DNA of 32,000 nucleotides, taken from contig NC_009932.1 of assembly GCF_000018105.1 (NCBI RefSeq), positions 60,001 through 92,000 on the forward strand, written 5' to 3'. Below the pieces are notes generated by a model. The model had not been told where the DNA came from, made no database searches, and saw only the letters and a program-made list of their open reading frames with translations. This document shows positions 430 to 32,000 of the stretch, piece by piece; position 1 is the stretch's first letter, and every line of letters starts with the position of its first letter. Made by a program: the position numbers and the translations under genes. This DNA comes from Acaryochloris marina MBIC11017. Its GTDB lineage: Bacteria > Cyanobacteriota > Cyanobacteriia > Thermosynechococcales > Thermosynechococcaceae.

Positions 430-705
430 GTGGTTAAGCAATTGATAACCTGGAAACTCAAAGAACACATGGCTGCAAACAAGATTTCCGTACCTCAGTT
501 GGCAGCCAGATTAGGAATTAGTGAAAACGCTGTAATCAATATGAGAAGGAGCGAGATGCCTCGTATTAATGGGGAACGATTAAATCAAATTATTGTGGCC
601 TTGAATGCAATGCGTAAGAAAGGTAAGAAACGTATACAGGTTCAAGACTTGATAGTTTTGACTTTCTCGATGGATGAAGCTGATGAAGCAAGGATCCACG
701 AGTGA
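430..705 (+). CDS. XRE/Cro-type helix-turn-helix DNA-binding protein (91 aa)
   Basis: GTG-start ORF. Residues ISVPQLAARLGISENAVINM fit the helix-turn-helix of Cro/C1-type repressors. It lies just downstream of an AT-rich, palindrome-containing leader. Family assigned from motif recollection only. Confidence 0.6.
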   Translation: MVKQLITWKLKEHMAANKISVPQLAARLGISENAVINMRRSEMPRINGERLNQIIVALNAMRKKGKKRIQVQDLIVLTFSMDEADEARIHE

Positions 706-765
706 TTTGTTTCCTATAGCCCACTCTCCCTACCCTTCCTGTGTACCTCATCGGTCACACAGAAA

Positions 766-1629
766 ATGCTCAAAACCACATTATTGTCACTTGGGCTGTT
801 AGCGATCACATCCGTGTCAGCCCTCGCCAATCCCGCCACCATTCCCATAGATCAAGCCTTCAAACAAACTCAAAAGCTAGAAGTCTCAGATGTGGATCAT
901 CTATTAGACTTCACGGATACCCGCTACCGAGTCATCAAAGCCTTTCCCAGTAACCCTCAACAGTTGCGGGCCTTAAGCCTGTCTCGTAACGATCATCAGC
1001 AACTCCTTCTCAAGTGGACCCCAAACGGCACAGCCAAGAAAGCTAGTGTTTTCCTTCGGGTCATGGGGCCAGGGGGAGAACAAACCATTACGCTCCTAGT
1101 GAAGCGGTCTGGCAACGAACCGGACAACATCAGAACAGCCTTCGTCCCCAGCCAAACCGTTTCCAAAGATGCAGTGATCGGGGAAGTATCGCAAGTTTCC
1201 ATCAAACCAACTGTTGCACCTATCCCAACCCAACTCATCCGCCCCAACAGGACCACCCAAAATCCACCCAAAACAGCACAGCCTGTTAAACCGCCCTTAA
1301 CCCTCACTCACCCGAAATCCCCACCCGTCATCAAACTCAGATCTTCTCCCAAGCCCATCCTCCAAATAGCCAAAGTCTCAACCACAGGTCGGCCCCTCAT
1401 CGACCGCTCCACATTGGACAACAAAGCCTTAGCCAACTACCTGATCAGAGGACTACACACCCCGAAGGGTCGGAAACAAGCCAACCGCCATCACGACCAC
1501 TACTGGTTTGCTCAGTCGATGGCTCGATATCTCAAACGTGGCGTATCCATTGATAAAGCCTTGCGCTGGTCTCGACTACCAGAGAAAACCTTTAATGACC
1601 TCCTCGGCCACGGTGGCGTTAGTCGCTGA
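766..1629 (+). CDS. secreted proline-rich protein, function unknown (287 aa)
   Basis: N-terminus MLKTTLLSLGLLAITSVSALA looks like a Sec signal peptide with an AxA site. It has a central P/T/K-rich linker and a basic C-terminal domain. No family recognised. Confidence 0.55.
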   Translation: MLKTTLLSLGLLAITSVSALANPATIPIDQAFKQTQKLEVSDVDHLLDFTDTRYRVIKAFPSNPQQLRALSLSRNDHQQLLLKWTPNGTAKKASVFLRVMGPGGEQTITLLVKRSGNEPDNIRTAFVPSQTVSKDAVIGEVSQVSIKPTVAPIPTQLIRPNRTTQNPPKTAQPVKPPLTLTHPKSPPVIKLRSSPKPILQIAKVSTTGRPLIDRSTLDNKALANYLIRGLHTPKGRKQANRHHDHYWFAQSMARYLKRGVSIDKALRWSRLPEKTFNDLLGHGGVSR

Positions 1630-1651
1630 AAAGCCCACCGTTAAAGCAAAC

Positions 1652-1681
1652 TTGCACCTTTAAAGCCATCTTACCTATGTT
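1652..1681 (+). promoter_or_regulatory. conserved promoter-like box, copy 1 (TTGCAC-N18-TATGTT)
   Basis: TTGCAC at 1652-1657 and TATGTT at 1676-1681, with an 18-nt spacer CTTTAAAGCCATCTTACC matching the other five copies. The box is intergenic, and ATG 1714 follows 32 nt later. Confidence 0.55.
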
Positions 1682-1713
1682 TCAACCATCCCCCTTTCGG
1701 AGATTGAATCCTC

Positions 1714-2370
1714 ATGCTATCCCCATGCCTTCAAACCGCACGGCACTATGCCCATAAACATGGACCACCCTGGTCAGCTCCCCTACTCTGCATCCTTCTC
1801 ACCCTCTGCCCCTTTATCCTCCCCCTCCCCCCAGGCACTCAGATCGCAGGGCTAGAGATTATGGCAATGGTTTGGTCCACCGCCCTCTTCCTCCACCTCT
1901 ACCAAACGCTCAACATCCAAACCAAGCTGGGCCTCTATCTCTTCTTCTCCGGGATGATCGCCCTAACCCCATCCATGGTGAAAGCCCAAAACGTCGGCAA
2001 TGCCCCCTCCAGTGCTTGTAACTCCGGTTTCTTCCTGATCGGCCCCATGCTCGGAGCCGTGGATACCTCCTTGGGCTGGTTTCTGGGTGGCGTCCTCGCT
2101 TACTCCCTTTGCGCCTTTATGATTGCCCTGATAATTGTCTTCTTCCTCGTTGTCATTGTCGGTTTAGTGATGGCTGGGGCAGAATCCCACAACAGCAAAC
2201 GCACCCTGTTTGAAGTCCTCTCCCAATACCTGAACGTGATCATCACCATGATGGTGATCGCCTCCTTGGTGACCGTCTTTAACCTGCAATTGAGTAATAA
2301 CGGCAACGCCGCTCCCATCCCCGTCGGTGGACAGAATCAGCCCCAAGGCGCAACCTCCGTACTGAACTAG
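1714..2370 (+). CDS. small polytopic membrane protein; VirB2/TrbC pilin-like candidate (218 aa)
   Basis: GGAG lies 11 nt upstream of the ATG. A long leader ending ...TPSMVKAQ is followed by 2-3 hydrophobic helices. The gene sits directly upstream of the VirB4-like gene. The assignment is topological and positional only. Confidence 0.5.
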   Translation: MLSPCLQTARHYAHKHGPPWSAPLLCILLTLCPFILPLPPGTQIAGLEIMAMVWSTALFLHLYQTLNIQTKLGLYLFFSGMIALTPSMVKAQNVGNAPSSACNSGFFLIGPMLGAVDTSLGWFLGGVLAYSLCAFMIALIIVFFLVVIVGLVMAGAESHNSKRTLFEVLSQYLNVIITMMVIASLVTVFNLQLSNNGNAAPIPVGGQNQPQGATSVLN

Positions 2371-2381
2371 GAGGTTGAGTC

Positions 2382-5300
2382 ATGAACCAGACCGAACAGA
2401 TTGAAAAAGAACTGCGCTACGGCAAAATCAACCCCTACATCGGCCCCACCCAATTCCAACTCCTGAGTGGACAGCAGATCATCACCCTCGCCGCCAGTGG
2501 CTGTATCTGCTTTATCCTCGGATTCTCCATTGGCTGGTTTATGGCCGCATTTCTATGGCTGGGCATCTTTGTCCTCACCGTATTGGCCCTGGGAAAAGAC
2601 TACTCCCGCATCTTCGCCCGTATGAGCAAACAGCGACGGTACTACAGTGACCGTCCCAACTATCAAGTCAAAGCAGGAATCCCCCTGATGGTGATTGAAC
2701 TACCTGAACCCTTCAAACTCAGTCAGCTTTTCCGTAGACAAACTAAGCAGAAAACCTTAAAGAAAATAGAACCCGAATTTGACCTGAGAGCCTATGGAGA
2801 AATGCTCCTCGGTGAAGACATTGGTTTTTACCTCGTCCATCAAGATAAACAGGACCGAGCCATGGTGATCTTCGGATTCACCCTCCAAGGCATCGACCCC
2901 ACCCTGTCAGAACAAGAAGCCATGGACTGGCTTCAAGCCATCGTCATGGCCCTCCAGAAAATCCCTGGCATCGAACTCAAATTCTTCTGGGACGTGGAAG
3001 GCTCTGCAGATCAAGTCCTTTTACATCAACATGATCTCGTCACCCACCATGACCTCGACCCCCTGAGTGAAAAGCTGATTAAAAGTGAGGCCCAAGTCGC
3101 CGTTGATTTAGCCGCAGACGGTAAACTCGTCCATTCCGTCATCCGGGTCTATGCCAAATACAGACTCAGCCTCGCTGATGACTATGCCGTCAAAGAAGAC
3201 CGCTTAGATAAGCTCCTGGCCCATACCCAGCCCCTAGTCGGCACCTTCCAAGAGTATCTCAACCCCCAACCCGAAGGCTTTAGCTCCAAACAAGCCTGGG
3301 AGAAAGTCTTAGACCGAGCCTATCAAGCCGGATATATTCCCACCGCCAAAGCGTTAACTCAAATGGGTGTCAAACCCCAGCCCATGACCAAAGAAGACCT
3401 GTGGGCCATCGACTGGGAAGACACCCATGCAGAACCCGCTGACCCCTGCCCCCAATCCATTACCTACAGTGAAGCGGGCCTCTCTCCCTTCAGCGAGAAT
3501 CAGCCTCTGCCCTATCACATCCTCGGAGAACTGTTCAGCCCCGAACGAGGGTTACCCGCCGTACCCACCCCCTACCTCTACACTCTCTATCACCCCATCA
3601 AGAATCAATGGGCTGCCCTCGTCAAAATCAATCAGCTCAGCACCTACAACAAGATCGATAACTTCCTCTCTATTGGCTATATGAAATTTCTCCTCCAAGC
3701 CCTAGAGGGATTTCATGGCTATCGCCTCATCTCAGAAATCACCCAGATTGAACCCGACTCCCGCCTGAAGCTCGTCAACTCCGCCATCAAAGAACGCAAC
3801 CGCAAAGCCATCGATGCTCAACTGCTCCACAGCACCCGCAACGTCCAAGCAGAAGCCGATGTGAATGAATTAGTGGATGCCTCCCGTGAACTCAGCTCCG
3901 GTCGCTGGCCCTTAAAAGTCAGCCTCGGTATCTGGGTCTATCGCAAAGATAAAGCCAGCCTTACCGCTGCTGTCCAAGACCTAATTCGCCGCTTGCCCAC
4001 CAGCAAGACCGAGCAAGTCAGCAATCACCTCATGACCCACTGGATCTCCAGTCATCCCTTCCACTGGCAAAGCCTGTTCTCCAAGCCCCAACTGCGGCGA
4101 GAAGAATATCAATGCAATCAGGGGGTTCCCCTGATGCCCCTCGTCCATCCCCAGACCATTGATCAGCAGGGCATCCCCTTTGTCTCCAGAGGCGTTGCCA
4201 TTCCCGTCCATCTCAACACAGCCCTGAAGAAGAACCTGATTGCCATCTTTGGACCTATGGGGGTAGGTAAGTCCGTATTGATGAACCGGATGATCCTAGA
4301 GAACATCATCCATCGCATCTTTACCGTCGTCATTGATGTGCCCCCCGGCAACGGCAAGAGTACCTATCAGCCGTTTATGATCCAGCTCCAACGAATTGGT
4401 GTCTCCGCAGCCTACTTCGACGTTAAATCCCACATCATCAATGGACTCGATGAAATCGATACAAGCTGGGCAGGTGACCTCCTCAGTGTCCAACTCCTCA
4501 AGAAAATCAAGCAAAACCATCTCAGTCTCCTGCGGGCCTTAGTCCTCGGTGACGACCTCGACCATCCTCTCTACAAAACCATCAAATCTGTCCTGGCCCT
4601 CAGCTATCAAGACTGGCGGGCCTTAGCGGACATTGACCAGCGCTATCGCATTGCCAAAGCTGCTGCTTTCGGCTCAGAAGACTCCAAACGAATGCCTATC
4701 CTCCAAGACTTCGTAGATTACTTTCCCCAGTGGGTAAAGCAATACAAACAGGATAAAGACTGTGAGGATTTAGAACTGCAGGCCATCGCCATGATCCGCA
4801 CGGAACTGGAAGCCGTCCTCACCACGGACCTCGGAGCCTCCATCAATGGCATTAACACCTTTAACTTCGACCTCCAAACCCTTGTCATTGGCCTGACGGA
4901 CTTGCAAGACCCCCAAGAGAGCGTCATCTATTCCATGGCAGCGATTAACTTGATGGAACTCCAGTCCTTTCGTTATCCCCGCTCCGCCATCTTTGGCGAT
5001 GAAATCTCCACCACCTTTAAGTACCGCTCCATCTCCATCCGCTTCGCTGAGACCTGCACCCGAGGCCGCAAAGAAGCCAAGAACGTTGTCATCGCGGGCA
5101 CAGAGGAAAACACCCTTGTCCAGTCTGAGGGAGGCCGAGATATCCTCAGCAACCTGGATGCCGTCTTCTATGGACACTGCAATCCCACCGCCGTAGAGAA
5201 CGCCGCTAAGCATCTGCGCCTCAAGCCCGAAATCCTCTCCAAATATGTCCGAGCCGAATATGCCCCCAACCTGGCGGAACTCTGCACCTCCTGGTATCTG

Positions 5301-5507
5301 CGTAAAGGGAATCAACACTATGAGCTGCTGTTCTACACCTCAGCCCTGATGATTGCTCTTGTCTGCACCCAACCCGAAGAAACCGCAGCCAGAGACCGGA
5401 TCCTGGCTCTCTATCCCGATAATCCCCTCCAGGGCTATATCAAATTTGGGCATCTGCTGAAACGGGCTTACAAACTCAACCTGCCCCTTTCCCTTATCGG
5501 AGCCTGA
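2382..5507 (+). CDS. virB4: VirB4/TrbE-family type IV secretion ATPase with N-terminal VirB3-like membrane segment (1041 aa)
   Basis: AGGAGG RBS. Two N-terminal TM helices (ITLAASGCICFILGFSIGWFMAAFLWLGIFVLTVLAL). Walker A GPMGVGKS at nt 4251-4274, Walker B-like AIFGDEIS, then RGRKEAKNVVIAGTE. Size and layout are typical of VirB3-VirB4 fusions. Confidence 0.8.
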   Translation: MNQTEQIEKELRYGKINPYIGPTQFQLLSGQQIITLAASGCICFILGFSIGWFMAAFLWLGIFVLTVLALGKDYSRIFARMSKQRRYYSDRPNYQVKAGIPLMVIELPEPFKLSQLFRRQTKQKTLKKIEPEFDLRAYGEMLLGEDIGFYLVHQDKQDRAMVIFGFTLQGIDPTLSEQEAMDWLQAIVMALQKIPGIELKFFWDVEGSADQVLLHQHDLVTHHDLDPLSEKLIKSEAQVAVDLAADGKLVHSVIRVYAKYRLSLADDYAVKEDRLDKLLAHTQPLVGTFQEYLNPQPEGFSSKQAWEKVLDRAYQAGYIPTAKALTQMGVKPQPMTKEDLWAIDWEDTHAEPADPCPQSITYSEAGLSPFSENQPLPYHILGELFSPERGLPAVPTPYLYTLYHPIKNQWAALVKINQLSTYNKIDNFLSIGYMKFLLQALEGFHGYRLISEITQIEPDSRLKLVNSAIKERNRKAIDAQLLHSTRNVQAEADVNELVDASRELSSGRWPLKVSLGIWVYRKDKASLTAAVQDLIRRLPTSKTEQVSNHLMTHWISSHPFHWQSLFSKPQLRREEYQCNQGVPLMPLVHPQTIDQQGIPFVSRGVAIPVHLNTALKKNLIAIFGPMGVGKSVLMNRMILENIIHRIFTVVIDVPPGNGKSTYQPFMIQLQRIGVSAAYFDVKSHIINGLDEIDTSWAGDLLSVQLLKKIKQNHLSLLRALVLGDDLDHPLYKTIKSVLALSYQDWRALADIDQRYRIAKAAAFGSEDSKRMPILQDFVDYFPQWVKQYKQDKDCEDLELQAIAMIRTELEAVLTTDLGASINGINTFNFDLQTLVIGLTDLQDPQESVIYSMAAINLMELQSFRYPRSAIFGDEISTTFKYRSISIRFAETCTRGRKEAKNVVIAGTEENTLVQSEGGRDILSNLDAVFYGHCNPTAVENAAKHLRLKPEILSKYVRAEYAPNLAELCTSWYLRKGNQHYELLFYTSALMIALVCTQPEETAARDRILALYPDNPLQGYIKFGHLLKRAYKLNLPLSLIGA

Positions 5508-5510
5508 GCC

Positions 5511-6656
5511 ATGAACCGTAAACAAGCCGTACTGTTTTCTCTAATCATTGTCTTCTCTAGCCCTCAGCTTACCCAAGCCCAGGTTTTCTCTGATGACATA
5601 ACCCTACCGACGAATGCCCCCACCTTCCCATCGGGTGTTCCCAATACCACCGGGGATGTCAGTGTCACCCAGGATAATCCCTTTGACGATAGCCCCAAAC
5701 CCAACTTCCTCAAAGACATCTTCTTGGGTACGAGCAACTATAGACCGATTCATTCCAGTACCTTGAAGTTGTTCGATATCCTCGGTAAAGCCCAGAAAGG
5801 CTTACAGACCTATAAGAACGTCAAAAAAGTCTATGACGGCATCCGAGGTAAGAATGCCAACAGCATTACCGATGGGGTGTTCAACGTCCTCGAACAGTAC
5901 GGCATCATTGACCCCCAAAAAGCCACCACTGCCTCGAATCGCTCCACCCCTATCCTCATCGGTCAAGGGAATCAAGGTCCCGCCTATGCCACAGCTGGCT
6001 CAATCGGAGCCTTAGAGCTAGAACCCAAAGAACCCTATGAATGGCGGGTCAAAGCCTTAAACGAAAACATCGTCTATAAAAACGCCATTCAAAAGACCGG
6101 GGACTTTATCTACTCCCCTGAAGCCCAAGAAATCCTCAAAGTCCAAGATCAAGTCGCCGCTGATGCCAGAGACGCTGCCGCTGCCGCTGCTCAAGGAGAG
6201 CTAGAATCCGTCCTCGCCTCGACCCAAGTCAAAGACCAGAGCATCTATGCCAGCACCGTTGTTGGTGAATACGGCACCTCAGCTCAAAGCGCTAAATCCA
6301 CCCAAGCCGTCAACAAACTTGAGACGAAGCAAAACACCGAGATTGCCAACATTCTGGCGGGCAATGCCTTTCAACTGAATGCCATCAACGAATCAATGGT
6401 CCGCAACACTTCAGCCTTGGGCAATATCGTCACTACCCAATCCATCCTCGTAGACAAACAGACCGTCTCCCAATACCTAGATGCCGCTCAACTCCGCCAG
6501 TCAGGTCAAATCTTCACCACCCTCAACAACCAATATTCCTATGAAAAGCGCAAGGACATGTATCGCCACCTGGCCGCAGCCGACACCAGTAACCTGCTTC
6601 ATTTCCCAGGTTTGGTGGAACCTCAACCGAATCTTTCAGGACAAACGCAACCGTAG
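5511..6656 (+). CDS. secreted protein, function unknown; VirB5/TrbJ-position candidate (381 aa)
   Basis: The ATG lies 3 nt after the VirB4-like stop. Signal peptide MNRKQAVLFSLIIVFSSPQLTQAQ. The C-terminal half is Ala/Gln-rich and helix-like. The VirB5 analogy rests on position only. Confidence 0.6.
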   Translation: MNRKQAVLFSLIIVFSSPQLTQAQVFSDDITLPTNAPTFPSGVPNTTGDVSVTQDNPFDDSPKPNFLKDIFLGTSNYRPIHSSTLKLFDILGKAQKGLQTYKNVKKVYDGIRGKNANSITDGVFNVLEQYGIIDPQKATTASNRSTPILIGQGNQGPAYATAGSIGALELEPKEPYEWRVKALNENIVYKNAIQKTGDFIYSPEAQEILKVQDQVAADARDAAAAAAQGELESVLASTQVKDQSIYASTVVGEYGTSAQSAKSTQAVNKLETKQNTEIANILAGNAFQLNAINESMVRNTSALGNIVTTQSILVDKQTVSQYLDAAQLRQSGQIFTTLNNQYSYEKRKDMYRHLAAADTSNLLHFPGLVEPQPNLSGQTQP

Positions 6657-6699
6657 ACTGATCATTGCCTTAATCTATGGCATCCTTATCGTCCTGCAT

Positions 6700-7959
6700 A
6701 TGGCAAGCCATGCCCATGCCGACTTTGCCGAAGACCTGATTAGCGATCTAGAACCGTCCGTTGCCCATGACGCATTTTGGGATGACCTCTGGAACGCCAC
6801 CTTTGACCGCTCCACGGTTATCAGTGGTGATACCCGAAGAATTGCCTTTGGATCCGTGAGCACTGTCGTTCGTTGGGTGACCCTGATTGCCCTATTCGTC
6901 GTCCTCCTCCATTACGGGTCAGGAATGATGTTCAGCGGCACCAGCTTGCGAAAAGGCAATGAATTCACCATCAAAAGTGTCTTTCCCGTCGTCATCATCC
7001 TCGCCCTTCTCGCCAATCAGTTTGCCGGGGTCCATGCCGTGGGGCTGTTCGTCAATCAGGCCCGCTTAGGGGTTATGGGAGAAGCCTATGCTCAAACAGA
7101 ATTCGCCACCACCTTCCGCAGTGCCATTAAAGACGCCTATCTGTCAGAGAAGTATCGAGAGAGCCTCGCCTTTCGGGCCAAGCAATGCAACCTGATTGAA
7201 ACCCCCATTACCACCATTCCTTCCCTAGAAGAACCCACCAACCCCGAGACGCCCCTGACGGATGAACAGCGTCAGTACTACAAAAAGCTTCAGTGCATCC
7301 AGTCCATGGTCACCTATATCCAAAGTCTGCAAGCGCAAGTGGCAGCAGAATGTGAAAAAGGCTGTGTGGGCACCAACGTTGCCATCGTCAAAGATCTCAA
7401 AAAGTATGGAGTCGATGGGGTTCCTGGAGTCGTAGCCGAGAACTTGGATATCTTCGTCATCCCCATTCAAAAATTAGGAGAACTGGCCGCTGATGGAGCC
7501 AGACATGGAGCCCAAGAAACCTATCGTCTGATCTTCCGAGCCATTCAATGGGCCTGGACCTCGTTTCTAAATATGGGATTCTATCTCACGGCAGTGGGAG
7601 CACCCATTACCTACGCCATATCCCTAATGCCCACCAAGCGACATTTTCTATTTGATTTGAACCTGTTCGCCCTGCTGATGTTCTCCCTAGCAGAGTTTGC
7701 CAATATCTTCTGCATTGGGATAGTGGCCCTGATGCTGCAACGACCCACCCTAGTGGACTTAGGTGGGTATATCTTCCCTTTGACCTATGGATTACTTGCA
7801 CCGATTGTGTCCGGTTCAATCTTCCTGGGTGGGTTTAAGGCCGCAGCCAGCTTTAGAGGGGGTGCCTTGGGTGTTGCCAGTGCAGCAGGAGGCATCGCTG
7901 GAGGGATTGCCACCTCAGTGATGATCTCAGCCCGGAACCGCCGAGAGCAATATTACTAA
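6700..7959 (+). CDS. polytopic inner-membrane protein, VirB6/TrbL-like candidate (start uncertain: 6541, 6658 or 6700)
   Basis: The frame is open from 6481. At least six hydrophobic helices are present (e.g. VVRWVTLIALFVVLLHY, FLFDLNLFALLMFSLAEFANIFCIGIVALML) plus a Gly/Ala-rich tail. The first non-overlapping ATG is 6700, but a signal-like segment is encoded upstream of it. Position after the VirB4- and VirB5-like genes matches VirB6. Confidence 0.55.
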   Translation: MASHAHADFAEDLISDLEPSVAHDAFWDDLWNATFDRSTVISGDTRRIAFGSVSTVVRWVTLIALFVVLLHYGSGMMFSGTSLRKGNEFTIKSVFPVVIILALLANQFAGVHAVGLFVNQARLGVMGEAYAQTEFATTFRSAIKDAYLSEKYRESLAFRAKQCNLIETPITTIPSLEEPTNPETPLTDEQRQYYKKLQCIQSMVTYIQSLQAQVAAECEKGCVGTNVAIVKDLKKYGVDGVPGVVAENLDIFVIPIQKLGELAADGARHGAQETYRLIFRAIQWAWTSFLNMGFYLTAVGAPITYAISLMPTKRHFLFDLNLFALLMFSLAEFANIFCIGIVALMLQRPTLVDLGGYIFPLTYGLLAPIVSGSIFLGGFKAAASFRGGALGVASAAGGIAGGIATSVMISARNRREQYY

Positions 7960-7965
7960 ACCGAT

Positions 7966-7995
7966 TTGCTGCTCAAAAGACATCTTGCCTATGTT
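7966..7995 (+). promoter_or_regulatory. conserved promoter-like box, copy 2
   Basis: TTGCTG at 7966-7971 and TATGTT at 7990-7995, with an 18-nt spacer CTCAAAAGACATCTTGCC. A GGGAGA RBS and ATG 8026 follow. Confidence 0.55.
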
Positions 7996-8025
7996 TATTG
8001 CAACCGTGACTAAAGGGAGAAAATC

Positions 8026-10571: not shown

Positions 10572-10604
10572 AACAACCCAGAGAGCAAAGACAAGGAGCG
10601 AGAC

Positions 10605-20411: not shown

Positions 20412-20421
20412 GCAAAAAGTC

Positions 20422-21291: not shown

Positions 21292-21429
21292 AGCGCTGAT
21301 TAAATTACCACACAGCGGCTTTCTTTCAATCCCTCCAATACTTCTACTTCCTACTCCGCTAGGTAGTGGTTTGTGATGGTTTTCGACTGGCCAATGCCCT
21401 TCGGAGAGACAAGAACTGCCAAGTAAAGG

Positions 21430-21478: not shown

Positions 21479-21483
21479 TATCT

Positions 21484-22140: not shown

Positions 22141-22202
22141 TTTACCCGATAGCAAAGCCGTTCAATATCAACCCTCAATCACCACAATCAGGAGTCAAAC
22201 TC

Positions 22203-23048: not shown

Positions 23049-23112
23049 TAAGTCACCCGCCAACACAGTCATCACACGATTCAACGTCATCACGCTCATC
23101 AAGAGGTCAGAT

Positions 23113-24449: not shown

Positions 24450-24464
24450 ATCGTGGTCGCTAGA

Positions 24465-25496
24465 TTATGACATTTCACGTACAATGTCGGGAGTTTTCCC
24501 CGTCCAGAGATGAAAGGCTCGGAAGAATGAACTGGGTTCACTATAGCCAAGCAGCAAGGATATTTCTGCACTTGAATAGGGTGTATTAACAAGATAGTGA
24601 TTAGCCAATTCCGCCCTTAAGCTGCTCAGTTCTTGCTTAAAGCTTGTATTTTCATCTTGCAGCCGTCGCTGTAAAGTGCGTGTGCTGACTGCCAGCCTTT
24701 TCGCGACATCAGCCATCGTGCATTGACCGCTGGCAAGAATTTCCATTAGACAAGCCCGAACGCGATCCCGAAAATGCGCATCTACTTCTAGATGCTGCAT
24801 ACGCTTGTGCAATTCAGGCTCGAAAATCGACCACATCCCAGCATTAGCGGTTAGAAATGGCTTTTGCGCATCTGCCGCTGAAAAGACAACACCATCAAGC
24901 TCACCGTTGTCCAGAGGTACACCGAAGAAAGCCTCATATTCTTTTGAACCGGGAATCGTGAAAGTACTTTGCACCTTAAGTGGAATAATGAAAGCGCGGG
25001 TCGCCAATCGAGTCAAATGCACGAGTAGCGCTAGCTCCATAGCAATGAGAGATTGGGGGATCGGTGGGTGTCCCGGAAGCTCTCCCAGGGCGATCTGAGT
25101 GTCATGGATAGTTTGTGTAACATCAAGGCGAAAAGGGCCAATCAATCGTTTATATAAGGCTAATCGCTGGATACCCTGATTGAGATTTTCGCTGCAAATA
25201 CAGGCAAAAATAGGTGGGCTGAAAGACTCTACGGTGATAGATTGAGCAATCCGTAACGGAAAAGTTGGATCCTTTAATAAAAGAGTTTCTAACCCTTCCC
25301 AAAAACGAAAATACTCCGTGGAAGTTAGGGCAGGAGTAGGCTGGCAGAATAGGTCTAGGGGTAAATTCGCTTGACGTAATATCGCCTGGGGAGACACACC
25401 CAAATCTTTCAGCAAGACTTGCCAGCCCGAATCCAATACGAATTTATGGTTTGTTGGGTTCATTGAAACGATATCCCTGCACAGTAGTCGAGCCAC
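24465..25496 (-). CDS. AraC/XylS-family transcriptional regulator with N-terminal AraC-type ligand-binding domain (343 aa; ATG 25463 is an alternative start)
   Basis: C-terminal double HTH: DVAKRLAVSTRTLQRRLQDENTSFKQ...AEISLLLGYSEPSSFFRAFHLWTGKTP. Last gene of the minus-strand SDR-SDR-AraC string. Confidence 0.85.
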   Translation of the reverse strand: MARLLCRDIVSMNPTNHKFVLDSGWQVLLKDLGVSPQAILRQANLPLDLFCQPTPALTSTEYFRFWEGLETLLLKDPTFPLRIAQSITVESFSPPIFACICSENLNQGIQRLALYKRLIGPFRLDVTQTIHDTQIALGELPGHPPIPQSLIAMELALLVHLTRLATRAFIIPLKVQSTFTIPGSKEYEAFFGVPLDNGELDGVVFSAADAQKPFLTANAGMWSIFEPELHKRMQHLEVDAHFRDRVRACLMEILASGQCTMADVAKRLAVSTRTLQRRLQDENTSFKQELSSLRAELANHYLVNTPYSSAEISLLLGYSEPSSFFRAFHLWTGKTPDIVREMS

Positions 25497-25499
25497 CAG

Positions 25500-26318
25500 T
25501 TAGCCAAATGCTCGGTTAATTATGAACTCGAAGGTTCCGTCACCTAACCATTTTCTGATAAACATCAGTGGCTTGGCCATGGAGCCTTTGACATATCTGC
25601 GCTTGGGGTTCTTGGAATTAACAGCTTCGACAAAAACCCTAGCTAAAACAATCGGTTCTGTGGCATTATCCATAGCCTTAGGATCTGCCATCATCCTGAG
25701 GTAAGGATCCATCTGTTTTTGATATGCACTGCTGTCGTAATACTTTTGCAATTGCTTACCTACGACATCGCCAAATTCAGTTTTGATACCACCAGGCTCC
25801 ACTAAGACAACCTGAATATTAAATGGCTTTGTCTCAATCCTTAGACAATCGGACCAGCCTTCCAAGGCATGTTTCGTAGCGTGGTACCAGGCTCCTAGCG
25901 GTGTATAAATTTTCCCACCCATAGAAGAGGTGTTGATAATCCTGCCTGACTTCTGTTGGCGCATATAGGGCAGCACGATTTGAGTCAAATGAGCCAATCC
26001 AAACAGGTTTACGTCAAATTGGTATTGTGCATCGTCTAAGGGTACATCTTCTACTGGTCCGTATAAGCCAAATCCAGCATTATTGATCAAGACATCAATT
26101 CGTCCTGCATCGGCAATAATTTGGTCAACAATCTTCTGATTATTTTCGCGATTGGTAACATCCATCTGTACCGGGATAATCCCTAGAGATCTAAGCGATT
26201 CCATGCGCTCAATCCTTCTTGCCCCGGCATATACTTTGTGGCCCTCTTGGGCAAGTAACTTAGCGGTCTCCAGCCCCATACCTGAAGATGCACCAGTGAT
26301 CAAGATGACTTTGCTCAT
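25500..26318 (-). CDS. short-chain dehydrogenase/reductase (272 aa from ATG 26318)
   Basis: AGGAGG (26324-26329 on the coding strand) lies 5 nt upstream of ATG 26318. TGASSGMG, NNAG, YHATKHA. Confidence 0.9.
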   Translation of the reverse strand: MSKVILITGASSGMGLETAKLLAQEGHKVYAGARRIERMESLRSLGIIPVQMDVTNRENNQKIVDQIIADAGRIDVLINNAGFGLYGPVEDVPLDDAQYQFDVNLFGLAHLTQIVLPYMRQQKSGRIINTSSMGGKIYTPLGAWYHATKHALEGWSDCLRIETKPFNIQVVLVEPGGIKTEFGDVVGKQLQKYYDSSAYQKQMDPYLRMMADPKAMDNATEPIVLARVFVEAVNSKNPKRRYVKGSMAKPLMFIRKWLGDGTFEFIINRAFG

Positions 26319-26341
26319 TATTATCCTCCTCAATGATTAGA

Positions 26342-27181
26342 CTAAAATTCACGTAGGGATTGACCCACTTGTTGTTGCAGAACAGGACTGAGATTCGTTC
26401 TGACGTCGTATCGAACATCCCCTTCGTAACGGGGAGCATATGTTGCATAAGCAGCGGCCAAAGCTTTTTGTTTTTGATGTAACATCACCACGTTGTAAGC
26501 ATGGCTGACAACATAGAATTCATTGGCTTTTAACTGAGGTATTGTTATACTCACAAACTGATCAGTCGGCATACCATACTGCATGTTCTCGGGTGGCCCC
26601 AATTCAGATACAACAAAGCCTGGACAAATTAAACTAACGTCAATAAAGTCTGGTAGCTCTTCTCTCAGTGAATGAGTAAAGGCCAGCACTCCATGCTTAG
26701 TAGCAACATAGGCACCATTAAAAGGCGTCCCATGGAAAAGAGAGTTTTCCGAGCCAATGTTATAGATAGCTGCTGGAGTGCCTTGATCAACAAAGCGCTT
26801 ACCAAATACTTTGGAACCAATGACGACACCAAACAGATTGACGTTGAAGATGGCATGAATATCTTCTAGGGGCATGTCTAGAACTGGCGCGTGATGCACC
26901 ATCATGCCAGCGTTATTGATGAGTACATCCACTTTGCCAAAACTATCCCAAGCAAAGTCGGCCAGTTTTTCAGTGTCTTCCAAGCTACTGGCATCTGCGA
27001 GGATAGCTTTGGCTTCAATGCCATTATTATTGAGCGCTGTTATCGCTTCTTGTAGTCGATTTTCTCGCCGACCACTAATCACAACCTTTGCGCCTTCTTT
27101 GCCAAATGCCTTGGCATAACCAAAGCCGATTCCGGTTGTTCCACCAGTAATGACGATGACTTTATTACTAAAGTTATCCAT
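26342..27181 (-). CDS. short-chain dehydrogenase/reductase (279 aa)
   Basis: TGGTTGIGFG, NNAG, YVATKHG. First gene of the minus-strand string. Confidence 0.9.
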   Translation of the reverse strand: MDNFSNKVIVITGGTTGIGFGYAKAFGKEGAKVVISGRRENRLQEAITALNNNGIEAKAILADASSLEDTEKLADFAWDSFGKVDVLINNAGMMVHHAPVLDMPLEDIHAIFNVNLFGVVIGSKVFGKRFVDQGTPAAIYNIGSENSLFHGTPFNGAYVATKHGVLAFTHSLREELPDFIDVSLICPGFVVSELGPPENMQYGMPTDQFVSITIPQLKANEFYVVSHAYNVVMLHQKQKALAAAYATYAPRYEGDVRYDVRTNLSPVLQQQVGQSLREF

Positions 27182-27454
27182 GTACTTTTACCTTACGGTT
27201 GAGATTATTGTTGTGAGATGGAAAGCTGCAAGTGCTTTCGTTTAGTGATGTTGCTCCCAGTCACTTTTGGATTGAGAGCTAATTCTGATTTCTTGAGAAC
27301 AGCATACGGGCTGAAAGTTTTTTGGGGAGTGACATAATGCGTCAATTTTGTAGCATTACACGCCAACTTTTTATACTCTCTAACCAACAGAGGAAAGCAA
27401 CAAGGAATATCGTTCTGTTCAATACTTTTGAGCAATCCTTGCTACTTGGCTTAG

Positions 27455-27648
27455 AACATCAATGACATCACGGGCATTGAGCAGAGTGGTTTCAAGTTGA
27501 AAGTGATTCCTTGGTTTCACAACTCTTTGCCACACCCCTATCTCACAGAGCAGTTGAAGCGATTTGGAGATTTTGTCTTGGACTTAGAGACTGTACCTGT
27601 ACCTTTTGAACAAGCCATTCAACTACCGATTAAGTTTGACGAAATCTA
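27455..27648 (+). pseudogene. Tn3-family transposase C-terminal remnant (right arm)
   Basis: The frame is open from the TAG at 27452. It ends ...YLTEQLKRFGDFVLDLETVPVPFEQAIQLPIKFDEI*, identical over the last 35 residues to the left-arm remnant but on the opposite strand. There is no start codon. Confidence 0.55.
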
Positions 27649-27850
27649 GTCTAGGCAAAGCTTTTCGGAGCTGTTTGACATCCTATAAGGTGATCAAGAA
27701 GTGAAAAAACTAGATCTCTAAAAGTCTTTCTATATATAGTTTCTGGGACCATCTTGAATGTTTTTACACGTATCTCGGCCAGACCTCAGAAATATTCAAA
27801 ATCGGGGAAGTAACTAAGAAAAAATGTAGGTATCGAGTTAAAAAGATTGT

Positions 27851-27883: not shown

Positions 27884-27913
27884 TTGCACCCCACCATACA
27901 ATCTGCCTATGTT
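27884..27913 (+). promoter_or_regulatory. conserved promoter-like box, copy 5
   Basis: TTGCAC at 27884-27889 and TATGTT at 27908-27913, with an 18-nt spacer CCCACCATACAATCTGCC (the most divergent spacer). An AGGA RBS and ATG 27945 follow. Confidence 0.5.
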
Positions 27914-27944
27914 CCCGTTAGCCCTACCTAGCAGGAATTTTCAT

Positions 27945-29747
27945 ATGCCCCAACAAACCACCCAACCCTCACCAGAATACAGAGGGTTCCACAACATTCC
28001 CATCAACTATGGCTGGCTCACTGTGGGCTTTCTCAGCATCGTCTTTATCATCTGGCTCAGTACCCTCAATCGATGCAGAACTCAAATTCCAGAGGGAATG
28101 CCAAATGCCAGAGAAGCCACCCCCAAAGAAATCAAAGAAGGGTCCAACAAAGCCAAACTGATCCGAGCTGAAGGCGACATCGAAAAGTCCGCGATCCAGC
28201 TCAACCCAGAAACAGGTATCACCCTTGGTCCCATTAATCCCGGTGGAATTGTCTCAGGTAAAAGCGGTGGCGGAAAAACTGAAAGCTTTGCCCTTCGCCT
28301 CATCGAATCCCTCGCGGAAGATGGAGCCTCCCTGATGATCAGTGACATCAAAGGCGAACTCATGGAGAAAACCGCTGCCTATCTTCATGACTTGGGTTAT
28401 GACCTTCACTTTCTTGCCCCTGGCATCAAAGAAACCTCAAAGTACTCCGCAGATAAACTCCCCTTCTCCGGTGGCCTCAACCTCCTCGACCTGATTGCCA
28501 ATGATGAAGACCTCGCAGGCACCCTTGAACTAACCCGAGGCATCAACATCAATGCTGCCGAGAACTATGAACGCAGACATCAATACTTCGGTCCCCAGTC
28601 TGACCTCCTACAACAGTCCATGATGCTCGGAGCCAAAAGCAGTGAATATGCTGACATGCTGATGGTCTGGGAACTGATGGGCCTCAACAACATCGCCGAA
28701 CGCTTAGCCGCAGCCAAAGACAACGACAAGATGGGGAAAGGACTCCCCTACTTTATGACTCACCTAAGCCGAGGACTGAGGACCGTCGCCAACAGCTCCA
28801 GCAGTGCAAACCCTGGCCCCACCATTCAATCCACCGCCAGCCAGAACTGGGTACAATTTCTCGACCCCGAGATTGCCAAATGCATGACCAAGACCACCAT
28901 CCCCTTGGACCTCACAGGCAAACAAGCCATCTTCTTCCGCATCAATGAAGACCAGCTAGAAGCCACCAAGACCTACCTCGCCGCCGCCCAACATATGCTG
29001 ATCAAGCGCAACATCAGCTATACCCGCAGACGCCAGAACAACCTAGGCGTGATCATCGAAGAAGCCAGTTTCACCCTCTATCCCAACGCCAAGAAATGGT
29101 CAGCCCTCGGACGGCAGAATGGTCTATTGATGTGGATGGTTTATCAACAAGAAGAACAGATGCAGGAACTTTATGGCGAGAAGCGCTGGGAAAGCATCGC
29201 CGCCAACCTGCCGACCCGGATCTATATGAACCAAGGATCTTATAAGAGTAATCAAGTCATCGCCAACCGCTTAGGCAAGAAAACCATCATCAGCACCACG
29301 GAAAACGAGTCCTTTGGTTCCAACCATTCACGGAGTCGCAACGACAGCTTTCAGCAAGTGGATTTGATGACGGCAGACCGTTTAGATGCCATGAAGAAAC
29401 CGGGGCAATGCATCATCGTCGATGCCTCCACCAACGGTCACCCGATCATCTATGAGAAGAAACAGCTTCCCTATAACGAGAACAGCCGTCAAGCCAGGAT
29501 AAGGAAGCAGTGTAAAGTCGCATGGCGAGAGGACATCCTACCCAGCCTCCAAGAAGAACATCAGAAGCACTTTGGAGAGATCAATATCCAAGTAGCAATG
29601 GAGAACAGAGCCGCAGCCGCAGAGGATCTACTCCCACCCCCAGAGTATTACGCCATTGAAGAAGAAGCCGCAGAAATTGATGCAGAAGAAGGCACTGAAG
29701 ACGCAACTGATGTAAACGAAATGGAGGAGATGGACGATGCAGCCTAG
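27945..29747 (+). CDS. virD4: VirD4/TraG-family type IV coupling protein (600 aa from ATG 27945)
   Basis: N-terminal TM helix (WLTVGFLSIVFIIWLS). Walker A GKSGGGKT at nt 28257-28280, Walker B-like GVIIEEASF, and an acidic C-terminal tail (EEEAAEIDAEEGTEDATDVNEMEEMDDAA). The upstream ATG 27909 overlaps the -10 hexamer and is disfavoured. Confidence 0.8.
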   Translation: MPQQTTQPSPEYRGFHNIPINYGWLTVGFLSIVFIIWLSTLNRCRTQIPEGMPNAREATPKEIKEGSNKAKLIRAEGDIEKSAIQLNPETGITLGPINPGGIVSGKSGGGKTESFALRLIESLAEDGASLMISDIKGELMEKTAAYLHDLGYDLHFLAPGIKETSKYSADKLPFSGGLNLLDLIANDEDLAGTLELTRGININAAENYERRHQYFGPQSDLLQQSMMLGAKSSEYADMLMVWELMGLNNIAERLAAAKDNDKMGKGLPYFMTHLSRGLRTVANSSSSANPGPTIQSTASQNWVQFLDPEIAKCMTKTTIPLDLTGKQAIFFRINEDQLEATKTYLAAAQHMLIKRNISYTRRRQNNLGVIIEEASFTLYPNAKKWSALGRQNGLLMWMVYQQEEQMQELYGEKRWESIAANLPTRIYMNQGSYKSNQVIANRLGKKTIISTTENESFGSNHSRSRNDSFQQVDLMTADRLDAMKKPGQCIIVDASTNGHPIIYEKKQLPYNENSRQARIRKQCKVAWREDILPSLQEEHQKHFGEINIQVAMENRAAAAEDLLPPPEYYAIEEEAAEIDAEEGTEDATDVNEMEEMDDAA

Positions 29748-30174
29748 TCAAGACCAGACCTTAGAACGGGATGCTGAGAAAGGAATGCACCTGGCCGAAG
29801 AAGGCGTAGAGAAAGCCGCCAGATTGACGGCTGAGACTCTACGAATACTCAAGGCACAACTCGCTAAATACAACAATCGCGTGTCCATCAAATTTGAGTC
29901 ACGAGCCGACGATATCGCCAACGTCAAAGCTGGGATGCAGGGAGGACTCAAGGGAGTACAGCTCAGGCAGATTGTCAGGGCGGGTGACTCGATCAAGGAA
30001 GTAGCTCAGCGAACCCAGTCAGCGGAGAAAGTGAAGCTGTATGAGGACCGGGTATTGTCCAGGGCACAACATGAACTGAATCGAGAGAAGGTAGAACATC
30101 GTCGATCTCAGCAAACGGATCAGTCCCAGAAGCAGAGTCAAAGGCAGTCTCAGTCACAGGATTTGGGGTTGTAA
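29737..30174 (+). CDS. small charged helical protein with SQ-rich tail, function unknown (145 aa)
   Basis: GGAGGAGA RBS. The ATG overlaps the end of the coupling-protein gene by 11 nt, consistent with translational coupling. The protein is highly charged with a C-terminal QSQKQSQRQSQSQ stretch. Confidence 0.6.
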   Translation: MQPSQDQTLERDAEKGMHLAEEGVEKAARLTAETLRILKAQLAKYNNRVSIKFESRADDIANVKAGMQGGLKGVQLRQIVRAGDSIKEVAQRTQSAEKVKLYEDRVLSRAQHELNREKVEHRRSQQTDQSQKQSQRQSQSQDLGL

Positions 30175-30182
30175 AATACCTC

Positions 30183-30377
30183 TTAATTTCCAAATTTACA
30201 TGCTTGTGGATTATAAATAGGATGGCATCCGATGGCATGTAATTCGGCATTATGACTTTGCTCAATATTGAGCTTGTCACCGAAAGACTTTTCTGTGATG
30301 TTTATTGAATTATTTATAGACATGAAGCCCATAGATAGACTCAACGCACTGGCAAGCCCAACTAAGCAGTATTTCAT
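30183..30377 (-). CDS. small secreted Cys-containing peptide (64 aa), paralogue A
   Basis: Signal-like N-terminus MKYCLVGLASALSLSMGFMS shared with ORF 30446-30628. AGGA lies 12 nt upstream. The region is AT-rich and the ORF is convergent with the upstream operon. Confidence 0.4.
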   Translation of the reverse strand: MKYCLVGLASALSLSMGFMSINNSINITEKSFGDKLNIEQSHNAELHAIGCHPIYNPQACKFGN

Positions 30378-30445
30378 GAGGTGTTAATCCTTTGTTATTT
30401 AAGTAACGGCAAATTCAAAGAAGGAAATATCTTGATTCACAGCAA

Positions 30446-30628
30446 TTATGGGTAAGGATCACAAGGGAAAAAAGTACAGATAAATGCAACCTGATTAATG
30501 TCTTGCGGATAATCAAATTTAAATGTTCTTTCGTCAGATTCTCTAGCTATTTCACTGGTGAAATTTATTGCTGTTAAACCTAGAGAAAGTCCAATAGTGC
30601 TTGCAAGGCCAATTAAGCAATATTTCAT
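30446..30628 (-). CDS. small secreted Cys-containing peptide (60 aa), paralogue B
   Basis: N-terminus MKYCLIGLASTIGLSLGLTA. The first ~20 codons are similar to paralogue A at nucleotide level, while the mature parts differ. Confidence 0.4.
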   Translation of the reverse strand: MKYCLIGLASTIGLSLGLTAINFTSEIARESDERTFKFDYPQDINQVAFICTFFPCDPYP

Positions 30629-30838
30629 GAGATTAAAACTCTAAAACGATTTAGAAAAACGGTATCACTGCATCTAGAAAAATCATCAATATTTTACGTT
30701 TATTGATACTAGCAACTTATATGAATTTCGATTGCCTATTTTTCTCTCTGCCCCAGAAAATTCTTTGATTTAGGTCTACGATCTCTCACCATCAGCACGA
30801 TAGATAACAGTCTTCAAACCCAATCCTCACATAACGAT

Positions 30839-30868
30839 TTGTCCCTCACAGGTCATCTTGCCTATGTT
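30839..30868 (+). promoter_or_regulatory. conserved promoter-like box, copy 6
   Basis: TTGTCC at 30839-30844 and TATGTT at 30863-30868, with an 18-nt spacer CTCACAGGTCATCTTGCC. A GAGGG RBS and ATG 30897 follow. Confidence 0.5.
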
Positions 30869-30896
30869 TCATAGGTAAACCTCGCGAGGGTTTGAA

Positions 30897-32000
30897 ATGT
30901 CTACCTTCAAAGACCTATACAACACAGCGAAGGAGGCCGAGGATGTCGCCTTTGCCGTGTCCCCGATCCCCCTTGGATTCATCAAGAGTGGGATTCAAAA
31001 TGTGGGGGTGCCATTAGTCGTAGCGGCTGCGGCCACCCATACCCCCTTTGTTGCTCCCCTAGCAGGCACAGCAATCAAGTGGGGGAGTGATGCCTTCCAG
31101 TCTGGCACCCATTCTCTGGCCCAACAAGCCATGAGCAACTTTGGGGAATCCGTGATGTCTGGCCTGCCAGCCTTTGGCGGGATTCAAACCAGCTTTAATT
31201 GGATTTCATCAGAATCTTCTCAGGTGATATTGGCAGGCCAGGATATGGTCACCCATGCCGTGGGATCTGTGGGTACTTCTCTGATGTTGGGCCGCACAGT
31301 GGCGAATTCTGCCGTCGTTGCCTTTCAGAAGATTCGACCCATGACCATCAATGAAATACTCGCCAATGGTCAACAGGCATTAGAGCGCTCTCAAGAATTT
31401 CTCACCAGTGTCGCCAGTCATATCCGTCAAATCGGCATCCATGCTGAATTATTTGTAGAACAGGAGTTTGCAAAATTGTCTAACAGCGAAGAACAGACTA
31501 CCCAGGTTCAGCCCACTGAATCTCCAGAGCAAGCAACCGTCTTGGCTATGGATAAAACTCAAGTCGAAGCAGAACCCCAACTCAAAGCTGCGGCTCAAGT
31601 CGAGTCAAACGGCACCCAGCCTGAGATCAACGTTCAGCCCTCAGAGAATGGCAATGGTCAATCAGAGCGAGGGACACAGGCCAATATCTTTGAGGCGGCA
31701 GTGGAGACGGCTGCTAATATGGTCAATCCGATTCGTTCTGAATCTTCTCAAGAAGCAGAAGATTATGTATTGGGTTTAGTGGACAAGTTAGCCGCTGGCA
31801 ATATGAACGTGGATCGGCTGTATATCAAGATGGATGGCATTGATATCTTCAAAATGAAGAACGGTGCCCCAGATCCATCCACCTCGATCACGGACTCTCA
31901 ACGAGATGCCTTGCAGCAAGCCTTGGAAGACCCCGCAGCCTTTGGGGGGAATCTGGTGATTAAGCAGGGGAATAAAGTCTTACTGAATATCAAAAAGGGT
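30897..32000 (+). CDS. large protein of unknown function, 5' partial (open to the window end, at least 368 codons)
   Basis: This ORF is absent from the ORF track because it has no stop in the window. My hand translation from ATG 30897 (MSTFKDLYNTAKEAEDVAFAVSPIPLGF...NKVLLNIKKG) found no stop through 32000. The promoter box and RBS lie at the same spacing as for the other operon starts. Confidence 0.6.
   Translation, partial: MSTFKDLYNTAKEAEDVAFAVSPIPLGFIKSGIQNVGVPLVVAAAATHTPFVAPLAGTAIKWGSDAFQSGTHSLAQQAMSNFGESVMSGLPAFGGIQTSFNWISSESSQVILAGQDMVTHAVGSVGTSLMLGRTVANSAVVAFQKIRPMTINEILANGQQALERSQEFLTSVASHIRQIGIHAELFVEQEFAKLSNSEEQTTQVQPTESPEQATVLAMDKTQVEAEPQLKAAAQVESNGTQPEINVQPSENGNGQSERGTQANIFEAAVETAANMVNPIRSESSQEAEDYVLGLVDKLAAGNMNVDRLYIKMDGIDIFKMKNGAPDPSTSITDSQRDALQQALEDPAAFGGNLVIKQGNKVLLNIKKG

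Follow-up and report, generated by a model that had tools for sequence, protein, structure and literature searches.

Probable MPF-C mating-pair-formation genes of a divergent Acaryochloris sub-lineage, with a coupling protein, an insertion sequence and cargo genes, on a plasmid of Acaryochloris marina MBIC11017

Does a stretch of 32,000 nucleotides from Acaryochloris marina MBIC11017 (contig NC_009932.1, positions 60,001 to 92,000 of the forward strand; hereafter the window) encode a conjugation machine, and, if so, of which class and in what state? The original prediction, made from the sequence alone, had described a type IV secretion system (T4SS) or conjugation cluster of the cyanobacterial mating-pair-formation class (MPF-C), most components of which it considered unrecognisable. 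The ATPase, the coupling protein and the accessory families shared with other MPF-C loci bear out the class assignment, and we hold it very likely that the window comes from an Acaryochloris plasmid with an MPF-C mating-pair-formation set plus a coupling protein. As judged by homology, the locus is a member of this known class and represents a divergent Acaryochloris sub-lineage of it.

MPF-C was defined from a VirB4 phylogeny (PMC3548315), and in 2014 eight profiles were built for it on the model of pCC7120alpha, five of them with links to VirB3, VirB6, VirB8, VirB9 and VirB10; no VirB2 homolog was found (PMC4027160). The protein alr7206 of pCC7120alpha has been used as the reference VirB4 of the class, and the plasmid itself was reported to be transmissible in vivo (PMC8600333). 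Acaryochloris was among the genera in which Guglielmini et al. found conjugative plasmids of the cyanobacterial VirB4 clade in 2011 (PMC3158045). In the present analysis, 13 further loci, each surrounding an ATPase homolog on a cyanobacterial plasmid, were compared by means of iterative hidden Markov model (HMM) searches and hhalign, in which unrelated family pairs, used as negative controls, all remained below 1%. With single R388 or F proteins as the reference, hhalign lacked sensitivity and missed even the canonical VirB10, which is Pfam-positive; reference profiles built from seven MPF-T systems, with 6–7 sequences each, were used instead.

The T4SS genes of the window are co-oriented on the plus strand and form three blocks (766–11981, 17211–20802 and 27909 to beyond 32000). 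The open reading frames (ORFs) named in the original prediction, as well as the Walker A motifs GPMGVGKS and GKSGGGKT, were found where it had placed them. The features of the cluster are the following:

766–1629, plus strand: 287-aa alr7211-like counterpart (VirB9 position), at the 5′ end of the operon (iterative HMM, hhalign)
1714–2370, plus strand: 218-aa hydrophobic candidate pilin (VirB2 position), just upstream of the ATPase gene (hydrophobic segments, position)
2382–5507, plus strand: 1041-aa ATPase, putative fusion of a VirB3-position protein and VirB4, Walker A motif GPMGVGKS (alr7206 homology, VirB4 profile match)
5511–6656, plus strand: 381-aa alr7207-like protein (VirB5 position; hhalign)
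6700–7959, plus strand: polytopic membrane protein, VirB6/TrbL-like, alr7208 family (phmmer; ORF open from 6481)
8026–8505, plus strand: 159-aa polytopic membrane protein, lineage-specific (sole sequence homolog in pREC4)
8498–8907, plus strand: 5′ part of an alr7209-like bitopic gene (VirB8 position), cut by an insertion sequence (colinear with pREC4)
8908–10299, minus strand: insertion sequence of 1392 bp (DDE_5 transposase ORF at 8923–10236, 437 aa, Pfam E 2.4e-34)
10304–10571, plus strand: 3′ part of the alr7209-like (VirB8-position) gene, to be joined to 8498–8907
10605–11981, plus strand: 458-aa bitopic VirB10/TrbI-like protein, alr7210 family, with a Pro/Gln-rich linker (hhalign)
17211–20411, plus strand: 1066-aa hydrolase with an alr7212-like N-domain (about 53–516), VanY (587–713) and M23 (948–1035) (Pfam, hhalign)
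20422–20802, plus strand: 126-aa small protein after the hydrolase, with a signal-peptide-like N-terminus read from the sequence (position)
27909–29747, plus strand: 612-aa type IV coupling protein, VirD4/TraG family, Walker A motif GKSGGGKT (three Pfam coupling-protein models)

The 612-aa protein is, by its domains, unambiguously a type IV coupling protein. It matched TraG-D_C (2.4e-25), T4SS-DNA_transf (2e-18) and TrwB_AAD_bind (6e-13), all above the gathering scores, and it has an N-terminal transmembrane segment, i.e., the features by which members of this family are recognised; we regard its identity as established.

The 1041-aa ATPase was related to alr7206 (encoded at 214524–217343 of pCC7120alpha) with E values of 1e-47 in tblastn and 5e-57 in phmmer, at an identity of only about 22%; identity to the paralogous Acaryochloris clusters was 28–31%. 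Matches covering 84–97% of its length were found by tblastn on 126 plasmid records, of which all the named ones were cyanobacterial. The cyanobacterial host that membership of MPF-C implies was confirmed by an A. marina protein 100% identical to the ATPase, and the placement of the latter in the cyanobacterial clade rests on homology searches, not on phylogeny. With respect to MPF-T profiles, the ATPase family aligned with VirB4 over 527 columns (hhalign, 97.7%, E 1.5e-12), as against 309 columns with VirD4 (82%) and 78 columns around the P-loop with VirB11 (90%). Among NCBIfam models, the TraC-F-type was matched by eight of nine family members (best 2.9e-13) and VirB4_CagE by five of them (7.5e-13), CD1110-type VirB4 and TrbE also being frequent and coupling-protein models rarer and weaker. 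Remote homology to VirB4 was therefore found in both domains and was stronger than that to other FtsK/HerA ATPases, and we count the VirB4-type affinity of the family as established at this profile level. Furthermore, residues 6–92, which include two N-terminal transmembrane segments, matched the alr7205-like small protein whose gene stands right before that of VirB4 in canonical MPF-C loci (hhalign, 97.9%), and therefore the original reading of this gene as a B3/B4 fusion is right. A VirB3 homolog was reported in MPF-C in 2014 (PMC4027160), and we infer that it corresponds to the alr7205-like gene upstream of VirB4.

In line with the synteny comparison suggested in the original prediction, the gene order around the ATPase recurred on all 13 other loci, an arrangement which, on the homologies found, is not due to chance. 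At the nucleotide level, the window was 85–88% identical to plasmids of A. marina MBIC10699 (pREC4), A. marina S15 and Acaryochloris sp. 'Moss Beach'. On pMB04 and pREC1 these genes form an uninterrupted set, in which the hydrolase gene and then the coupling-protein gene come directly after the others, and the three blocks of the window therefore belong together. Moreover, by means of profiles built here, window genes could be linked to the alr7205-, alr7207-, alr7208-, alr7209-, alr7210-, alr7211- and alr7212-like families of MPF-C, and, at the level of these alignments, we take the homology of each listed part as established. The components are thus less obscure than first thought: seven T4SS ORFs, i.e., six of the ten that had been listed as lacking a recognisable family and the N-terminal half of the hydrolase, fall into pCC7120alpha-type families. 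The predicted topologies of the parts fit the roles assigned to them.

The VirB6 and VirB10 assignments of the original prediction were reproduced by profile comparison. The product of 6700–7959 matched homologs on pLBX, pMB04 and pREC1 in phmmer (E about 1e-21) and the pCC7120gamma gene (5.9e-6). The alr7208-like family, with multiple transmembrane segments, aligned with VirB6 in hhalign (77.8%; next best below 1%), and one of its members matched Pfam TrbL (8.1e-8), while the window protein had no direct Pfam match. Regarding the product of 10605–11981, its N-terminal transmembrane and coiled-coil region aligned with the canonical MPF-C VirB10 (97.1%), and a profile of its C-terminal part only with the TrbI region of the canonical family (89.9%, 133 columns). 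Its single transmembrane segment (61–79) and proline-rich linker are those of a bitopic protein such as VirB10. The Pfam TrbI match of alr7210 itself (3.7e-14) was absent in this protein and in four other Acaryochloris counterparts, and PDB profile searches with the VirB10-like and VirB6-like families returned nothing meaningful.

It had also been stated that no VirB9-like gene is evident. A candidate for the VirB9 position does exist at 766–1629, where an iterative HMM reached alr7211-like genes with E values of 3.6e-8 and 8e-8 over N- and C-terminal segments. The protein, which has a signal-peptide-like N-terminus as read from the sequence, aligned with the alr7211-like family at 94% over the C-terminal helical 65 residues, the alignment of the N-domain being weak (35%), and the canonical family aligned with the VirB9 N-domain at 91.9%, compared with 2.5% for the window-type family alone. 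In canonical loci the alr7211-like gene follows the VirB10 gene, whereas in the window it opens the operon. The paralogous clusters carry a sigma-70-family gene directly in front of the T4SS operon (in coordinates of the compared loci, 17536–19242 in pMB04, 12009–14069 in S15 unnamed8 and 12874–15196 in pREC1); in two of the three, this gene and the alr7211-like one share an uninterrupted reading frame. A dedicated sigma factor, a fusion tethered to the membrane and an artefact of annotation are all conceivable explanations.

For the genes at the VirB2, VirB5 and VirB8 positions, the original assignments hold as far as position, topology and MPF-C family homology are concerned, and the link to VirB2, VirB5 and VirB8 themselves was not reproduced. 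The product of 5511–6656, again with a signal-peptide-like N-terminus read from the sequence, aligned over 175 columns with that of the gene 3′ of VirB4 in canonical loci, i.e., the alr7207-like family (95.6%, E 1.1e-8), and VirB5 was its top MPF-T match at only 6.5%; a VirB5 role would follow from its position. Homologs of 1714–2370 occupy the same position in pREC4, pMB04, pREC1 and pREC2. It aligned weakly with the alr7204-like family (37%), whose top MPF-T match was VirB2 (28–35%), and a pilin role is our guess. The product of 8026–8505 showed no significant similarity to its positional counterparts in pMB04 and pREC1, and is apparently a fast-evolving protein found in this lineage only.

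The two ORFs which the original prediction had listed as '8498/10300' are present, and they are the halves of one gene, split by the 1392-bp insertion sequence (IS). Joined, 8498–8907 and 10304–10571 encode a protein of 225 aa, colinear with that of the intact gene in pREC4, and the IS is bounded by 24-bp perfect inverted repeats (CCCTCTTTTATCACTTTAGACAGA) and by a 4-bp target duplication (ATAC at 8904–8907 and 10300–10303), the site being empty in pREC4. We consider the insertion as established. The element itself is apparently intact and presumably resembles the IS701 family, to judge by its size and duplication length. The repaired protein, with one N-terminal transmembrane segment (bitopic), matched alr7209 in phmmer (3.5e-6) and all loci in profile searches (1e-8 to 1e-23). 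With VirB8, the alr7209-like family gave 0.9% in hhalign, and a PDB profile search with the family gave no match; the window gene had a Pfam DotI/IcmL match at 0.012, which is below the cut-off. A link between MPF-C and VirB8 was reported in 2014 (PMC4027160). Because the VirB8-position gene is split, this copy of the cluster probably cannot work alone, unless complementation comes from a co-resident plasmid with a paralogous cluster. Relative to pREC4, all the remaining genes of the cluster are full length.

The catalytic domains of the hydrolase were recognisable, as had been claimed, and are certain, namely VanY (E 1.2e-41) and Peptidase_M23 (E 4.4e-31). It had been called a VirB1-type enzyme, a term that does not apply: no SLT domain was found in it by Pfam, and hhalign with the VirB1 profile gave 0.0–0.1%. 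It is a functional analog of VirB1 and not a member of the VirB1 family. Its residues 53–516 aligned instead with the alr7212-like family over 327 columns (99.7%, E 4.8e-27), the gene for which precedes that of the coupling protein in the canonical loci. When the first 560 residues were searched exhaustively, 113 representative clusters (50% identity) were returned. In 66 representatives, the domains fused to the alr7212-like N-domain were M23 (29), VanY (11), GH19 (4), Hydrolase_2 (2), Ntox50 (1) and CdiA_C (1). Ntox50, a polymorphic toxin domain, was seen in one representative and CdiA_C in another, in place of or besides wall hydrolases. Invariant positions of the conserved core are occupied by Asp, Glu and Gln, near-invariant ones by Cys, and no sequence relative of the core was found in Pfam or the PDB. 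Its AlphaFold2 model, built from 14 sequences, was beta-rich and moderately confident (mean predicted local distance difference test (pLDDT) 69.7, predicted TM-score (pTM) 0.68), and Foldseek found no neighbour of it in the PDB or among the viral models of BFVD (best E 0.25, TM 0.22 or lower). Tentatively, and with more doubt than conviction, we suggest that the alr7212-like domain might be peculiar to cyanobacterial T4SS, as a structural or enzymatic module that lacks a structurally characterised relative and docks interchangeable wall-cutting domains (M23, VanY, GH19, SleB-like) and occasionally toxins. If this were true, MPF-C would have met the need for wall penetration with a component of its own and not with a VirB1-type enzyme.

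After the hydrolase gene, every Acaryochloris-type locus has a gene of the size of 20422–20802. Similarities among these genes are weak (77% in hhalign with the Leptolyngbya counterpart), and the window gene is closest to the copy of S15 unnamed8 and not to that of pREC4. The pREC4 hydrolase (32201–35263 of the compared locus) has a gap over approximately 563–675, with most of the VanY segment missing, and is annotated with M23 only. Taken together, the VanY gap of pREC4 and the affinity of 20422–20802 to S15 unnamed8 indicate, on these comparisons, mosaic recombination in the hydrolase block.

Between the blocks lie two cargo islands. Island 1 (about 12.0–17.2 kb) comprises two paralogous 164-aa genes, a DUF29 protein and a methyltransferase; the two paralogs (12155–12649 and 16222–16716), 53% identical to each other and without family match, bracket it. 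Island 2 (about 20.9–27.8 kb; approximately 20943–27788) carries TetR, a short-chain dehydrogenase (SDR), an alpha/beta hydrolase, AraC and two further SDR genes, i.e., three SDR in total. This 6.8-kb block between the hydrolase block and the coupling-protein gene shares 98.6% identity with a segment of another plasmid (pREC2 of A. marina MBIC10699) and therefore suggests a recent exchange of cargo between replicons. A part of it is 97.9% identical to pREC1, and in the S15 and Moss Beach relatives the island is not present between hydrolase and coupling protein. Scans with Rfam and for tRNAs revealed no RNA genes in the window.

By analogy with VirB/D4 systems, from which both the architecture and DNA transfer itself are inferred, the VirB3-VirB4 fusion ATPase would sit at the inner membrane, accompanied by the VirB6-like polytopic protein and the bitopic VirB8-position protein. 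The VirB10-like protein would span the periplasm with its proline-rich linker and, together with the secreted alr7211-like protein at the VirB9 position, would form the outer part of the channel. The thick cyanobacterial peptidoglycan may be opened by the large secreted enzyme, in which a T4SS-specific N-domain carries VanY (a DD-carboxypeptidase) and M23 (an endopeptidase). The coupling protein would hand over to the channel single-stranded DNA with the relaxase bound to it; this relaxase, which is MobF in the relatives, is probably encoded just past the right end of the window.

A series of results weigh against this interpretation and have to be set against the above. The ATPase did not reach the curated VirB4 cut-offs of Pfam and NCBIfam, its best NCBIfam match (VirB4_plasma) attaining 21.8 bits at a cut-off of 590, and its direct Pfam matches were to generic P-loop models such as AAA_22 and DUF87, none of them VirB4-specific. 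A PDB search with the nine-sequence ATPase profile retrieved no VirB4 chain, the matches to TcpA, FtsK and TrwB being limited to the surroundings of the Walker A motif. An AlphaFold2 model of the ATPase had a mean pLDDT of 30, and so does not confirm the fold; it was built on an alignment of five sequences, as the homolog search yielded five close homologs and its repetition with the nine-sequence alignment the same five. The 1041-aa protein could accordingly be some other FtsK/HerA-superfamily translocase, and the cluster a different envelope machine resembling a T4SS, a reading to which we give hardly any credence: VirB4 was both the longest and the best profile match, VirB4-type NCBIfam models dominated across the family, and the ATPase is accompanied in the cluster by a separate coupling protein as well as by TrbI-, TrbL- and VirB9-like genes. 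The profile check proposed for the two ATPases thus had a divided outcome, in that the coupling protein passed three Pfam models and the other ATPase failed the curated VirB4 cut-offs, though remote homology supports VirB4. Also on the negative side, the relationships to VirB8, VirB5 and VirB2 were not reproduced by the MPF-T profile comparison, and in the Acaryochloris lineage the link to VirB9 runs mainly through a C-terminal 65-residue domain that lies outside VirB9 itself. In a Pfam scan of 20 window ORFs, which took in all but the truncated terminal one and four in the cargo islands, no match to a relaxase was found, nor any match to VirB11, the hexameric ATPase of T2SS/T4SS type, whose absence had been noted from the start; VirB11 was not among the annotated genes of the 13 related loci either. 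No origin of transfer was found in the window, nor were transfer data found for Acaryochloris plasmids. The papers that define the class (PMC3548315, PMC4027160) report no study, experimental or structural, of its mechanism or composition. Finally, the IS and the two cargo insertions suggest decay.

That no relaxase is evident had been stated in the original prediction as well, and this is true inside the window. However, in pREC4, the closest complete relative, the homolog of the last ORF, which the window cuts, is followed after about 4 kb by a MobF gene on the opposite strand, and MobF is directly downstream of the cluster in pREC1, pLBX and pCC7120gamma. Because these relatives carry MobF within a few kilobases downstream, the missing relaxase is probably an effect of the window edge, with a MobF-type gene just beyond the right end. 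The lack of a relaxase within the window, the relaxase-less T4SS noted in cyanobacteria by Guglielmini in 2011 (PMC3158045) and the toxin domains in two of the 66 hydrolase N-domain representatives (Ntox50, CdiA_C) would be compatible with a machine for protein secretion or cell-cell interaction and not for conjugative DNA transfer; yet the coupling protein has a TraM-recognition domain, MobF stands beside the cluster in four relatives and all the homologous loci found are on plasmids, so that we consider this quite unlikely, if less so than a mere T4SS look-alike. Far more serious, and in our estimate only a little short of an even chance, is the possibility that the locus is a decaying, non-autonomous remnant, inactivated by the IS and cargo, and that the plasmid moves, if at all, only by the aid of paralogous T4SS on co-resident plasmids. 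That the IS has inserted cleanly, with a target duplication, into a gene that is conserved otherwise would fit such a remnant, as would the nearly identical cargo between the hydrolase block and the coupling-protein gene and the related clusters that A. marina MBIC10699 has on at least three plasmids (pREC1, pREC2 and pREC4). Against it stand the full length of all the other cluster genes, the perfect inverted repeats, which make the insertion look recent, and the fact that cargo between operon blocks does not preclude their expression. An MPF-C set with its coupling protein is our preferred reading. As regards the proposal that the locus would be a useful template for defining the parts of the class, it is a poor one, because an IS splits the VirB8-position gene and two cargo islands interrupt the cluster; contiguous clusters exist on pMB04 and pREC1, and pCC7120alpha is already a published model.

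Three further genes complete the list, a neighbour on the 5′ side of the cluster and two genes of its third block:

430–705, plus strand: Cro/C1-type helix-turn-helix (HTH) regulator (Pfam HTH_26, E 3.1e-8); a neighbour of the cluster, not a demonstrated T4SS part
29737–30174, plus strand: 145-aa protein 3′ of the coupling protein (position kept in pREC4, pREC1 and pMB04; no Pfam family match)
30897–32000, plus strand: first 367 residues of a protein, about 500 aa long, that runs off the window end (read in frame)

The range originally given for the cluster opens with the regulator gene. A pilin at 430–705 is ruled out by the HTH_26 match, and homologs of this regulator are located elsewhere on pREC1 and pREC4. 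In pCC7120alpha, the 163-aa gene right after the coupling-protein gene (25833–26324 of the compared locus) matched the MobA/VirD2 relaxase nuclease domain (E 4.2e-9); the window gene 29737–30174, at the same position, gave no MobA/VirD2 match. Homologs of the 30897 ORF come after the coupling-protein gene in pREC4, pMB04, pREC1 and pLBX. A significant Pfam match was absent in six counterparts (three Acaryochloris-type, pLBX and two positional ones from other loci), and the pLBX homolog and the two positional counterparts had only sub-threshold matches of coiled-coil type.

With regard to the class as a whole, the parts list is stable across distant cyanobacterial lineages and helps to separate a conserved core of MPF-C (VirB3/4, the alr7207-like protein, the VirB6-like protein, the alr7209-like protein, the VirB10-like protein, the alr7211-like protein, the alr7212-like domain and the coupling protein) from lineage-specific additions. 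The modular wall hydrolase fits the thick peptidoglycan of cyanobacteria. Acaryochloris plasmids hold much of the accessory genome, and divergent copies of the machine on co-resident plasmids suggest a route of cargo exchange. The known picture of conjugation is unchanged by these results; what they improve is the annotation of a class that had been defined from sequence before.

Compared with the MPF-C cluster of pCC7120alpha (alr7204–alr7213), the window shares the ATPase, the coupling protein and the VirB6-, alr7209-, VirB10-, alr7207-, alr7211- and alr7212-like families, in the same core gene order and likewise on a cyanobacterial plasmid. It differs in the fusion of the VirB3-position protein to VirB4, in the alr7211-like gene at the operon start, in an alr7207-like protein that is about 140 residues longer, in an additional gene for a polytopic membrane protein, placed between those of the VirB6-like and VirB8-position proteins, in the fusion of the alr7212-like domain to VanY and M23 and in a TrbI domain too divergent for Pfam; the relaxase, in turn, is MobF in the relatives of the window and MobV in pCC7120alpha. 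The clusters of pREC1 (whose proteins we take to be common to pREB1 of MBIC11017), pMB04 and S15 unnamed8 resemble the window in parts, order, fused ATPase, long hydrolase and genes after the coupling protein, but they are contiguous, without IS or cargo, and have the sigma-70-family gene upstream.

With MPF-T systems (R388 Trw, VirB of the Ti plasmid), the window has in common the order B3/B4, B5-position, B6, B8-position and B10, together with profile-level similarity of VirB4 and VirB6, of VirB9 through the canonical MPF-C family and of VirB10 through Pfam TrbI. Unlike in MPF-T, VirB11, a VirB7 lipoprotein and an SLT-type VirB1 are missing from the window, and VirB2, VirB5 and VirB8 are not detectable by sequence. 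Lastly, the window hydrolase resembles those of Gram-positive T4SS, such as PrgK of pCF10, which combines LytM, SLT and CHAP domains: in both, several peptidoglycan-cleaving modules are combined in one large protein, which fits a thick wall, whereas the carrier domain of the window enzyme is presumably unrelated and its enzyme set is VanY and M23.

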